64,000 nt of DNA, taken from IMG/VR virus record IMGVR_UViG_3300042731_008053; one strand, written 5' to 3'. Source of the DNA: a virus. The position numbers and the translations under genes were made by a program. Below, in pieces: positions 6,431 to 11,403 of this stretch. A model generated the notes under the pieces. It did no database searches. It was given only the letters and a program-made list of their open reading frames with translations, and had not been told where the DNA came from. Every line of letters begins with the position of its first letter. Position 1 is the first letter of the stretch.

Positions 6431-6459
6431 GTCTACCTGAGATGAATGCTGTTGGAAGA
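6431..6459 (+). promoter_or_regulatory. Conserved motif copy 1: GTCTACCTGAGATGAATGCTGTTGGAAGA
   Basis: One of three near-identical copies (see 6824 and 11375). Here the internal ATG opens only a 9-codon frame; the next gene starts 57 nt downstream. Confidence 0.5.
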
Positions 6460-6515
6460 TTGGCCGTGTGAGGTGTGCACTTCTTGCTGCTCTTGAACGG
6501 GGATCCAGGTAAGCC

Positions 6516-6854
6516 ATGGAACGGTACAAGACAACCCATGATCCAACCGGACGCGTATGGCAGATCGAAGATACGCTCGTCAGCGGGGGTCGCCAGCGCA
6601 ACAACCGAATCGTCGCCCAGAACCTCAACTACACTGACGCACATTGCATCGTCGATCTCCTGAATCTCGGCGACAACACCGAGCTGAAGCGTGACGTGGA
6701 AGTCTACAGCAACGCGCTGGCAGCAATCGTCGCGACAGGCGGCAAGGCACCTGAGTGGTATCGCCAAACGGCTGCGGATGCGTTCAGCCAACGCAACAAC
6801 GAACGGAACGCCGCCGCTGATACGTCTACCCGAGATGAATGCTGCCGGAAGTAA
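6516..6854 (+). CDS. hypothetical protein
   Basis: ORF track; the 3' end contains motif copy 2. Confidence 0.5.
   Translation: MERYKTTHDPTGRVWQIEDTLVSGGRQRNNRIVAQNLNYTDAHCIVDLLNLGDNTELKRDVEVYSNALAAIVATGGKAPEWYRQTAADAFSQRNNERNAAADTSTRDECCRK
6824..6851 (+). promoter_or_regulatory. Conserved motif copy 2: GTCTACCCGAGATGAATGCTGCCGGAAG
   Basis: 25/28 identical to copy 1. The ATG at 6835 is in frame with the downstream gene. Confidence 0.5.
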
Positions 6855-7464
6855 ACGGATCATGCCGCCCTGGAAGGGTTTGGGGCTCCGTGCCTACCCT
6901 GAAGCGGTCGATGACGCCCTTTCGCGAAAACTGGATTGTGCGCGCGTCTGTGCATTGATCGGCAACGCCGAAGATCGATGGCTGATGGGCAAGGTCGCTA
7001 TGACGAACACGTGGGACACGTACATGTTGTTCCATCTCACGAATGACAGCGCTGCGTTGCTGTCGTGGGTCAACGCGGCCCGTGGACGTGAGTGTCGAAC
7101 CTACGATTGGAAACTGGCTGAAGGATCGCTGTTGGATCTCTGGGAGACGCTTCCCACGACTGTTCAACGCCAGCTAATCACCGTGCCTTTGTTTCGTCTC
7201 AAAGAGGACGCTACGCCCCCGGATGGTTTGGCCGCTGCTGCCGCTGTCATTGACACTGTCGAACTCAACTTGCTTTCAGCCCTTCCACTTCAACCTGTCG
7301 CACGCACTCACAACCGATACCAACACCCGTTCGATCTGGCGTGGGCGCTCTACCTCAATTCGTTCTATCCGGGGAAACGGTTGTGGGTCGAGCGCACCGA
7401 TAAAAACCGCGTCGTTCACAAAGAGTACACACAGACCAACGTCAGCACGTTCTACAACGATTGA
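6835..7464 (+). CDS. hypothetical protein (alternative start 6862)
   Basis: Frame of ORF 6691-7464. The first ATG lies inside motif copy 2 (MNAAGSKRIMPPW...); no recognised domain. Confidence 0.5.
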   Translation: MNAAGSKRIMPPWKGLGLRAYPEAVDDALSRKLDCARVCALIGNAEDRWLMGKVAMTNTWDTYMLFHLTNDSAALLSWVNAARGRECRTYDWKLAEGSLLDLWETLPTTVQRQLITVPLFRLKEDATPPDGLAAAAAVIDTVELNLLSALPLQPVARTHNRYQHPFDLAWALYLNSFYPGKRLWVERTDKNRVVHKEYTQTNVSTFYND

Positions 7465-7488
7465 TCGATCGAACCCAAAGGAGAATCC

Positions 7489-10134: not shown

Positions 10135-10242
10135 CTGTCTTTGTCCCTGGCCGATCGTTGCAGCGGGTTGTTTCCCGACGATCTTCACTCCGCGCACGGT
10201 TGGCCGGGGACACTTGTCACTGCTGTTTGGTAAGGTAGCCCC

Positions 10243-10743
10243 GTGATCGTTAGTGTCACAGGTCACCGGCCTCCCAAGGTCGGCGGTTACGGGAACAACT
10301 CCTTGCGTTCCTGCATTACTGATAACCTCAAGGACGCTCTCGTTGAGGCGAACGCGACGTTGGGGATCTCAGGCATGGCCATTGGCGTCGATCAGTGGTT
10401 CGCGCAAGCATGTTTGGATCTGTCAATCCCGTTTCTCGCTGCCGTTCCGTTTGTCGGTCAGGAGTCGCGGTGGCCCACGCCAGCTCAAATACGGTATCGA
10501 CAACTCCTCGCGAAAGCGGCGGAAATCGTACATGTTTGCGATCCAGGCTACGCTCGGTGGAAAATGCAGGCGCGGAACGAGTGGATGGTGGATCGTTGTG
10601 ATCGATTGATCGCAGTGTGGGACGGTAGTGCGGGTGGGACCGCTAACACAGTCCTGTACGCCAACAAGGTTCAACGCACTGTCCACTTGATCAACCCTCG
10701 TGAATTGGAAAGCGAATGCCAAACAGCAGTGAAGAACCAGTAA
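10243..10743 (+). CDS. SLOG / DUF1273 (YoqJ-like) family protein
   Basis: VSVTGHRPPKVGGY...ISGMAIGVDQWFAQAC...IPFLAAVPF...LIAVWDGSAGGTANTV pattern of DUF1273; GTG start. Confidence 0.6.
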   Translation: MIVSVTGHRPPKVGGYGNNSLRSCITDNLKDALVEANATLGISGMAIGVDQWFAQACLDLSIPFLAAVPFVGQESRWPTPAQIRYRQLLAKAAEIVHVCDPGYARWKMQARNEWMVDRCDRLIAVWDGSAGGTANTVLYANKVQRTVHLINPRELESECQTAVKNQ

Positions 10744-11261
10744 GCTTCTGGCAACAAGAGCGCCCCTGGTGGCACACCGAGCACGTGTACCAGGTGCGCA
10801 ACCGCGTTGTCGGGCTGCCGGTTCCAGAGCTGCGTGGGTTGGCCGAGGAAATGAAGGGCGCGATAGCGACCCTGCAACAGCAAATGGAGACGGCTGGGCC
10901 CGAGATCGCACCGGTGCGTGAGCTGTCGCGCCAGCTTGGACCCGTCAAACCCGACGTTCTCGCTGCCGCGCTTGGCAAAAAGTACGACATCAGCGTCGAG
11001 GAGGGGCGCGAGTTGGTGGACGCCTTCGACTGGTGGAAGAGTGTACGCGGGGCGCTGGGCTTCATTCGGCAAAAGCACTCACTCGTCGTTGCCGAGATCA
11101 CCCGTCGCCGTTCCGAAGATGCCGAACAAGCCGTGTTCGACATCAAAGGCAAAATCGAAAAAGCGTGCATGTTGATGGATCGCGATGAGGGCGACGACAT
11201 CGAGGACGCGTACAAATTGTTGCTGCAGATTCGGGAGCGCCTTTCCGCCGTAGGTCCTTAG
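10716..11261 (+). CDS. hypothetical protein
   Basis: ORF track; overlaps the upstream gene by 28 nt. Confidence 0.5.
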   Translation: MPNSSEEPVSFWQQERPWWHTEHVYQVRNRVVGLPVPELRGLAEEMKGAIATLQQQMETAGPEIAPVRELSRQLGPVKPDVLAAALGKKYDISVEEGRELVDAFDWWKSVRGALGFIRQKHSLVVAEITRRRSEDAEQAVFDIKGKIEKACMLMDRDEGDDIEDAYKLLLQIRERLSAVGP

Positions 11262-11374
11262 ATGTTGGAGCAGGTGCCGTCCTCGACATTTGAAGTAGCA
11301 ACCAGCGTCACGTTTGTGCTACTCGTTTGCGTCGCCGTTTTGCACCCCGTTTATCGTCGTTGCCAGTAGGCGTT

Positions 11375-11403
11375 GCATCTAGATGAATGCTGTTGGAAGA
11401 AGG
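11375..11403 (+). promoter_or_regulatory. Conserved motif copy 3: GCATCTAGATGAATGCTGTTGGAAGAAGG
   Basis: Same ATGAATGCTGTTGGAAGA core as copies 1 and 2. The internal ATG is the ORF-track start of the next gene. Confidence 0.5.

Follow-up and report, generated by a model that had tools for sequence, protein, structure and literature searches.

An oriented repeat at gene junctions and in lineage-specific DNA of a large uncultivated phage, a candidate recognition site for transcription

What is one short sequence, nearly unchanged, doing beside several gene starts of a large uncultivated phage? The question is raised by positions 6,431 to 11,403 of the 64,000-nt stretch of IMG/VR record IMGVR_UViG_3300042731_008053 analysed here (the window), where an original prediction made from the letters alone had described a conserved 28-nt element at three gene starts. 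The sequence comparisons reported below describe a short oriented gene-junction repeat of phages that appears confined to one phage lineage. We tentatively favour the reading that it is a cis-acting, lineage-specific recognition site for transcription, which would double as recombination homology at gene junctions.

A family of oriented copies at gene junctions

The exact 19-mer AGATGAATGCTGYYGGAAG, common to three strong copies and written out as AGATGAATGCTG(TT/CC)GGAAG, occurs on the plus strand at 6440-6458, 6833-6851 and 11381-11399; shuffled sequences give an expectation of 0.03 matches, and no shuffle reached three. The longer 28-mer GTCTACCYGAGATGAATGCTGYYGGAAG matches only copies 1 (6431-6458) and 2 (6824-6851), with none expected from shuffles, and these two copies agree at 27 of 30 nt. 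Identity between copies 3 and 1 is confined to the 3' 20 nt (AGATGAATGCTGTTGGAAGA), the 5' part of copy 3 reading GCGTTGCATCT. The shared core and GGAAG end originally described for all three copies are thus real, whereas the 5' GTCTACC(Y)G part is absent from copy 3. Local alignments upstream and downstream of the copies gave flank similarities no higher than in shuffled sequence, which makes this a short, sharply bounded repeat and not a segmental or longer decayed duplication. An apparent likeness upstream of copies 1 and 2, 'A(P/A)DAF', was rejected as not significant.

A hidden Markov model (HMM) built from the three strong copies was used to scan the window. This pattern search, which had been proposed as a check, added two diverged copies and made the family larger than three:

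6429-6458, plus strand: copy 1, ACGTCTACCTGAGATGAATGCTGTTGGAAG, nearest to the family consensus
6822-6851, plus strand: copy 2, ACGTCTACCCGAGATGAATGCTGCCGGAAG, encoding the C-terminal TSTRDECCRK of the open reading frame (ORF) 6516-6854
11370-11400, plus strand: copy 3, GCGTTGCATCTAGATGAATGCTGTTGGAAGA, followed by AGGAAGGAATTGAAG and ATG 11416
62621-62656, plus strand: copy 4, diverged, ATCTCTACTCGAAACGAACGCTGTTGtGAAGATTGC; HMM match at 62624-62656, TCTACTCGAAACGAACGCTGTTGtGAAGATTG, 10.9 bits
33250-33269, minus strand: copy 5, diverged, GATGAATGTCGATGGAAGAT; HMM match at 33281-33249, GGGATGAATGTCGATGGAAGAT, 9.5 bits

Among 200 Markov-shuffled windows, two reached 10.9 bits and nine reached 9.5 bits, and none held two matches of 9.5 bits or more. 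Copy 4 has in common with copy 1 a 5' TCTAC and a 3' GAAGATTG extension; both of its ATGs are replaced (ACG/AAC), and it overlaps GTG 62646, the start of a 190-aa gene. Copy 5 retains both conserved blocks with four central nucleotides altered and is a working stop/start junction, in which the TGA of the motif ends the upstream gene and gene calling places the start of a 99-aa gene (32965-33264, minus strand) at the second ATG (33264). The same phage was found in a second sample at 99.98% identity (L169/L171; source samples SRR11696381 and JGI 3300035128), on a contig that runs 7,977 nt past the 3' end of the window; no further copies were found in this additional sequence (L169). About 72 kb of the genome is covered in this way, the source contig being 78 kb long and relatives reaching about 150 kb.

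The family consensus is approximately (A)CGTCTACCYGA-GATGAATG-N4-YGGAAGA-T, an element of some 20-35 nt. It contains two conserved blocks, GATGAATG and YGGAAGA, that lie 11-12 nt apart centre to centre (about one helical turn) on either side of a variable centre. In copies 2 and 5, all six differences within the aligned 20-nt core (TT to CC in copy 2, four in copy 5) sit at the five central positions between the blocks, a clustering that suggests two recognised blocks. The octamer GATGAATG has seven occurrences in the window, four of them followed by N4-YGGAAG. Those at 37150 and 45574 (both on the minus strand) have block 1 only and were not counted as copies; the former is the start (MNV…) of a 58-aa zinc-ribbon ORF.

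All five copies are co-oriented with the local genes, including copy 5 in its minus-strand array. The distance from the 3' end of the motif to the start codon is 58, 11, 17, -13 and -5 nt, so that every copy falls between -13 and +58 nt. The chance that a random strand-position does so is 5.8%, corresponding to P ~7e-7 for five sites and 2e-4 for the three strong ones. Chance, or a meaningless local duplication, had been named at the outset as what would undo the prediction. The small number of strong copies, all within 5 kb, could be taken to speak for it, but it is refuted by the number of exact matches relative to expectation, by flanks that share no similarity, by the strong positional and strand bias towards gene starts, and by diverged copies 22 and 51 kb away, one of which is on the other strand yet co-oriented with its genes.

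For copies 2 and 3, the ATG embedded in the motif had been proposed to share the frame of the gene that follows, and the reading frames bear this out (…MNAAGSKRIMPPWKG… in copy 2 and MNAVGRRKELKMTPLQ… in copy 3). Also as described, the same ATG in copy 1 opens a frame of only nine codons (MNAVGRLAV*), the next gene starting at ATG 6516. The motif does lie near three gene starts; the genes after copies 2 and 3, however, begin past it:

6862-7464, plus strand: conserved 200-aa gene downstream of copy 2, starting at ATG 6862 by homology and by the gene call of L045
11416-11925, plus strand: conserved gene downstream of copy 3, with the start MTPLQTCEAA

Measured from the motif end, the gene starts lie 10 nt (copy 2), 16 nt (copy 3) and 57 nt (copy 1) away. 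On L045, a contig with identical DNA, the gene call is the 200-aa product from ATG 6862. ATG 11416 aligns with the MTDLEVC… starts of homologues in the related contigs L001, L046 and L048, and the start MAGDNAAWLGVGL… of the L001 homologue was used beside MTDLEVC… in setting the true gene starts. Shine-Dalgarno-like sequence precedes both ATG 11416 (AAGGAAGGAA) and ATG 6862. Because homologues and gene callers start these genes at 6862 and 11416, the ATG embedded in the motif is probably not the start codon, though it is in frame in copies 2 and 3. The idea that it is the true start, and that the motif merely reflects an N-terminal peptide MNA(A/V)G(S/R), draws on this shared frame and on the lack of an intervening stop. 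We consider it very improbable: no Shine-Dalgarno sequence stands ahead of the motif ATG, the homologues in L001, L046 and L048 begin at the positions of the downstream ATGs, and the frame ends after nine codons in copy 1 and six in copy 5. The motif is read in different frames across its copies, as C-terminal codons in copy 2, as a stop/start span in copy 5 and without the ATGs in copy 4, which agrees with the earlier view that conservation is at the DNA or RNA level and not at the protein level.

Lineage-specific DNA around the strong copies

Window positions 5048-18515 were aligned gene by gene with L001, a syntenic relative from ENA whose vault protein (described below) is 74% identical. 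Over these 13.5 kb of synteny, only two window-specific segments exceed 100 nt (627 and 154 nt, 5.8% of the stretch), and they hold all three strong copies. The original prediction missed both this restriction of the strong copies to DNA lacking in the closest syntenic relatives and the orphan gene that copies 1 and 2 flank:

6235-6861, plus strand: lineage-specific segment 1, 627 nt, comprising a spacer, copy 1, the orphan gene and copy 2
6516-6854, plus strand: orphan gene ORF-B, 112 aa, between copies 1 and 2, its last ten codons being copy 2
11262-11415, plus strand: lineage-specific segment 2, 154 nt of spacer with copy 3 and a Shine-Dalgarno-like sequence at the end

At the first site, the L001 homologues of 5839-6234 and 6862-7464 are 2 nt apart. 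The window instead has a 281-nt spacer (6235-6515) with non-coding codon statistics, in which copy 1 lies 57 nt upstream of ATG 6516, followed by ORF-B. Copies 1 and 2 are direct repeats around this gene, 393 nt start-to-start; copy 2 is directly followed by the TAA stop and, 10 nt on, by ATG 6862 of the next gene. ORF-B has a codon usage typical of the phage. Among 5.8 billion proteins no homologue was found but ORF-B itself, and its predicted structure (mean pLDDT, the per-residue confidence score, of 58) is too poor a model to use.

At the second site, a possible 35-aa hydrophobic mini-ORF (11262-11369) within segment 2 has a codon score that is non-coding-like. The corresponding spacer measures 9-12 nt in L001 and L048, 63 nt in L047 and 172 nt in L046. 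That of L046, where the neighbouring protein is 77% identical, is unrelated or very diverged, has a strong hairpin and is without the motif. Since the spacers of L046 and the window differ, what is inserted at this junction varies with the lineage. Small genes have been gained and lost in this region among L047 and L049 too.

L046 is the relative closest at this site, and we note separately that its 172-nt spacer forms a markedly stable fold (L046 1470-1575; -39.8 kcal/mol, z = -2.7). A perfect 8-bp stem (CCCTGCCG/CGGCAGGG) immediately precedes the start of the downstream gene, and the spacer opens, right behind the TAG of the upstream gene, with what may be a small hydrophobic ORF. Elsewhere in the L001 alignment, a 234-aa ORF with an N-terminal DUF7768 (12423-13127, plus strand) corresponds to two overlapping L001 genes (7440-7871 and 7868-8110, encoding 143 and 80 aa), a gene fusion or split between the relatives.

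A profile search with nhmmer detected no motif, even weakly, in L001 or L046-L049, whose orthologous gene starts are without it, and repeat searches of L001 and L047 uncovered no comparable junction repeat of their own. The 28-mer has no match in IMG/VR. The 19-mer has a single match there, inside an unrelated LAGLIDADG-like gene, and a further 42 single matches come from metagenomes, none of them with related flanks. For the degenerate pattern GATGAATGNNNNYGGAAGA, single matches attributable to chance numbered at least 118, with no multi-copy contig among the matches listed. No relatives of the phage were found among GenBank phages, plasmids or genome contigs, and a literature search for the motif sequence returned unrelated primer matches only.

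Candidate functions of the repeat

The frame-independent conservation of nucleotides, the two blocks, the strict co-orientation with genes and the placement at gene junctions argue for a cis-acting site on the DNA or the transcript. We propose that a phage-specific factor would recognise the motif and act on transcription of the downstream gene. The candidates are a promoter used by a phage-directed polymerase or sigma factor and an asymmetric operator or roadblock site; since copies 4 and 5 have a start codon inside the motif, an operator or roadblock would fit better than a promoter starting at GGAAG. As identical copies occupy several gene junctions, they would also serve as short homology for the precise insertion or exchange of new DNA between genes. 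Binding by a protein, transcription as the level of action and the creation of the insertions by recombination between copies are the parts of this proposal that we infer.

Several observations weigh against it. Three strong and two weak copies in 72 kb are few for a promoter class, and the start codon within copies 4 and 5 is hard to reconcile with a promoter starting at or after GGAAG. Neither a scan for promoters over 5000-13000 nor inspection for a TTGACA/TATAAT-like pair found a sigma-70 consensus in or around the motif. By eye, the motif likewise has no sigma-54, ECF or T7-type promoter pattern. Searches of the 71 window proteins with Pfam and PHROGs recognised no RNA polymerase, sigma factor or recombinase, and no recombinase was seen near the copies in particular; the visible part of the genome amounts to about 72 kb. 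The extra DNA could be an insertion in this lineage or a deletion in the relatives. The parallels with PeSLs and stoperators discussed below are also imperfect, since L001 keeps no motif at the empty site and the copies have no stem-loop.

Other searches around the copies were negative as well. No terminator-like sites were found next to them on the plus strand. Their flanks have no RNA fold in common, with stabilities no better than shuffles (z -0.5 to +1.5). Rfam 15 gave no gathering-level match in the window and nothing relevant around the copies at E up to 10, and the rest of the window offers the motif no complement long enough to be useful. Sites of the sigma-70-like kind are generally rare, a few of them lying in intergenic regions away from the copies (for instance 21463-21490 and 55622-55725).

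How does the motif compare with known elements? Like promoters of the T7/T3/SP6 type, it has a conserved 20-23 nt that lie upstream of genes and in their orientation, and its purine-rich GGAAGA end resembles the +1 GGGAGA/GAAGAG of these promoters. Unlike them, it has few copies, no single-subunit polymerase was detected in the visible 72 kb, and it is least conserved just before GGAAG, whereas T7-type promoters are conserved at -4 to -1. Inspection by eye also found no sigma-32 or MotA-box pattern and led us to reject the T7 class II terminator (ATCTGTT) and tyrosine or serine recombinase core sites. CRISPR-repeat mimicry was rejected because a Cas12a-like TCTAC…GTAGA hairpin would require a 15-nt loop and an A·A mismatch. 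Integron attC sites are imperfect palindromes with RYYYAAC…GTTRRRY ends that lie at the 3' end of a cassette and are accompanied by an integrase. The motif is not palindromic, its GTTGGAA fails GTTRRRY, copy 2 has no GTT, and no integrase domain was found in the window.

The nearest parallel for an arrangement around orphan genes comes from PeSLs (promoter-early stem-loop cassettes). In T4-type phages, these promoter-containing repeats flank orphan genes by which close relatives differ, and they recombine into mini-circles (PMC2839356). As with PeSLs, the copies are intergenic repeats that closely precede small genes where the genome of a large phage is plastic, an orphan gene absent from a relative lies between two of them (ORF-B is missing in L001), and the repeat ends beside the Shine-Dalgarno sequence and ATG of the downstream gene. 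Direct repeats around a single-gene unit of about 400 bp would also fit the model of mini-circle insertion and excision. PeSLs, however, are about 100 bp long and combine a sigma-70 consensus early promoter with a terminator stem-loop of the form GGGG…CCCC (Arbiol et al. 2010, PMC2839356; Comeau et al. 2014, PMC4122927), whereas only 20-35 nt are shared here, with no sigma-70 match and no stem-loop. In addition, the relative keeps a single PeSL at the site, whereas L001 has no motif at its empty site. The element is not a PeSL.

Stoperators, the sites of L5 gp71-type repressors in Cluster A mycobacteriophages, are 13 bp long and number 20-30 per genome of about 50 kb (PMC6550527, PMC9283540). 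They are asymmetric and oriented with transcription, and their consensus differs between related phages (PMC6550527). Most are not tied to promoters, and related phages need not have the same motif, as here. The motif, for its part, is about 20 nt long; all five copies are oriented with genes, and there are only five of them in 72 kb. The relatives have no motif of their own, and stoperators have no reported link to insertions. The SAS/ESAS repeats of Cluster K mycobacteriophages lie 3-7 bp from the start, with 10-20 per genome, and their conservation spans subclusters (Pope et al. 2011, PMC3203893). They resemble the motif in being asymmetric repeats of one orientation beside gene starts with a Shine-Dalgarno-like core, in sometimes extending over the upstream stop codon, and in being restricted to one phage group. 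Unlike SAS, the spacing of the motif varies by about 70 nt, and it is missing at the orthologous starts in L001 and L046-L049. Stoperators and SAS are close analogues too, but the motif departs from each in at least one defining feature.

If transcription is not the level of action, the repeat might be nothing but a footprint of recombination, a passive homology such as an old stop/start junction copied by insertions or gene conversion, with no regulatory role. The sharp edges and unrelated flanks, the direct repeats around ORF-B, the placement of every strong copy in lineage-specific DNA, the TGA-ATG within the motif (which is a working stop/start junction at copy 5) and the absence of the motif from all relatives compared and from other phages speak for such a footprint. 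We nevertheless find it fairly unlikely: the clustering of differences at the centre, with the two blocks intact, suggests selection on the sequence, copy 3 keeps 20 nt identical to copy 1 amid wholly different surroundings, and neutral scars of 20-30 nt are unlikely to stay exact while copies 4 and 5 diverged. It is unlikely, too, that the motif is the crossover site of an undescribed gene-cassette system of large phages and at the same time the ribosome-binding region of the gene downstream. In such a system, a strand-specific junction of about 30 nt, unlike attC or PeSLs and devoid of promoter or hairpin features, would place orphan genes and spacers exactly between translationally coupled genes, and the unit 6431-6823/6851 would be one cassette, equivalent to a 393-bp circle.

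The motif could also act in translation, as an initiation region in which GGAAG is the Shine-Dalgarno sequence accompanied by an enhancer or standby site, as a leader peptide (MNAVGR…), or in stop/restart coupling, possibly read by IF3. GGAAG is Shine-Dalgarno-like, genes here using sites of the AAGGA/GGAG type, and in copy 2 it lies 10 nt before ATG 6862. The motif surroundings fold no better than shuffles and look unstructured, the phage encodes IF3 and a release-factor fragment, and the SAS repeats are a precedent (PMC3203893). This explanation seems quite unlikely to us, since the distance to the start codon, to be compared with the 3-7 bp of SAS, is so variable as to argue against a ribosome-positioning element, and hence against the translational enhancer or standby site at fixed spacing that had been suggested among the first candidates. 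Moreover, copy 3 has a better Shine-Dalgarno sequence of its own downstream of the motif, copy 4 lacks both ATGs, the motif ATG is not preceded by a Shine-Dalgarno sequence, and no two copies agree in the short frames that their ATGs open. At the RNA level, the motif might instead be a site between cistrons that a sequence-specific endoribonuclease cleaves, or that a small RNA of phage or host targets, and so uncouple the expression of neighbours. T4 RegB, for comparison, cleaves at GGAG. The motif is strand-specific, always at cistron junctions of co-directional arrays, and appears single-stranded with no competing structure, all of which would suit such a site. It has, however, no complement of useful length elsewhere in the window, no Rfam match and no link to any nuclease, and we judge an RNA site of this kind distinctly improbable.

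The phage, its other features and the meaning of the locus

The window is a fragment of an uncultivated large phage with short, dense genes in long co-directional arrays. No tRNAs and no Rfam families were found in it. No repressor was identified in it, the only DNA-binding candidates seen being an AP2-domain protein (41973-42587) and a zinc-finger protein (35023-36351). Genes with recognisable products include the following:

7489-10134, plus strand: major vault protein homologue, 881 aa, with MVP shoulder and Vault_3 domains
22563-23099, plus strand: full IF3 (N and C domains), also present in the relative L047
25781-26425, plus strand: release-factor fragment, 214 aa, with the PCRF end and the RF-1/GGQ domain, the codon-reading part apparently missing
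28568-30430, minus strand: DnaG-type primase (Pfam/PHROGs)
49745-51496, minus strand: terminase/HerA-like ATPase, a weak match (Pfam/PHROGs)
52025-52987, minus strand: peptidoglycan-binding lytic enzyme (Pfam/PHROGs)
54494-55174, minus strand: peptide deformylase (Pfam/PHROGs)

The vault protein is a homologue of the eukaryotic major vault protein and is syntenic in L001 (74% identity) and L049 (53%). Bacterial homologues number in the thousands, with identities of about 50-56%; the ones that carry an organism name are from Myxococcota-type metagenome-assembled genomes. Phage major vault proteins from the gut were reported in a 2023 preprint (10.1101/2023.11.10.566534).

Other repeats were also noted in the window. 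The 20-nt sequence ATGATCGCAGCTGCGATCGG, which contains the perfect palindrome GATCGCAGCTGCGATC, occurs exactly twice (14222-14241 and 19908-19927), with 80% copies at 27251-27270 and 55672-55691 that are intergenic, one separating divergent genes. This sequence is distinct from the gene-junction motif and resembles a classical dimeric operator. Upstream of the lysis-like gene 52025-52987 (minus strand), the 406-nt intergenic region 52988-53393 holds about 7-8 tandem copies of a 13-nt G+C-rich unit, GGGGTGCCGACCG (53015-53118). A 46-nt direct repeat (35404-35449 and 39039-39084, 98% identical) lies within the minus-strand genes 35023-36351, which encodes a phage zinc-finger domain, and 38721-39353, and may be a recent gene-conversion tract or a shared module.

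Between divergent gene arrays, and adjoining the AP2-domain gene 41973-42587, lies an 800-nt gene-free region (41173-41972) that we regard as a candidate origin or control region. It contains three copies of GGGGGGATCTAC(T) (41471, 41541-41559 and 41645), two of which form an inverted pair separated by 51 nt, and an AT-rich palindrome (41933-41972). An 820-aa protein (55740-58202, plus strand) has an extreme composition, Q/P/G-rich at first and E/R/Q-rich over a long coiled-coil-like part thereafter; it matches no family, and its gene shows a local AT skew of 0.29 and a G+C content of 62%. It may be a scaffold-like or internal virion protein.

How orphan genes are acquired and wired into expression in large uncultivated phages is poorly understood outside the T4-type phages. 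The locus described here is a natural comparison, in which one gene order is found either with an orphan gene or lacking it, and a short repeat bounds the additional DNA. Should the motif be only regulatory, it would define a small regulon around the major-vault-protein module. If it regulates expression and also serves as a substrate for recombination, the idea of mobile regulatory cassettes would reach beyond the T4-type phages, to an element with another sequence logic, and the repeat would provide a handle for spotting recently acquired genes in metagenomic phage genomes.

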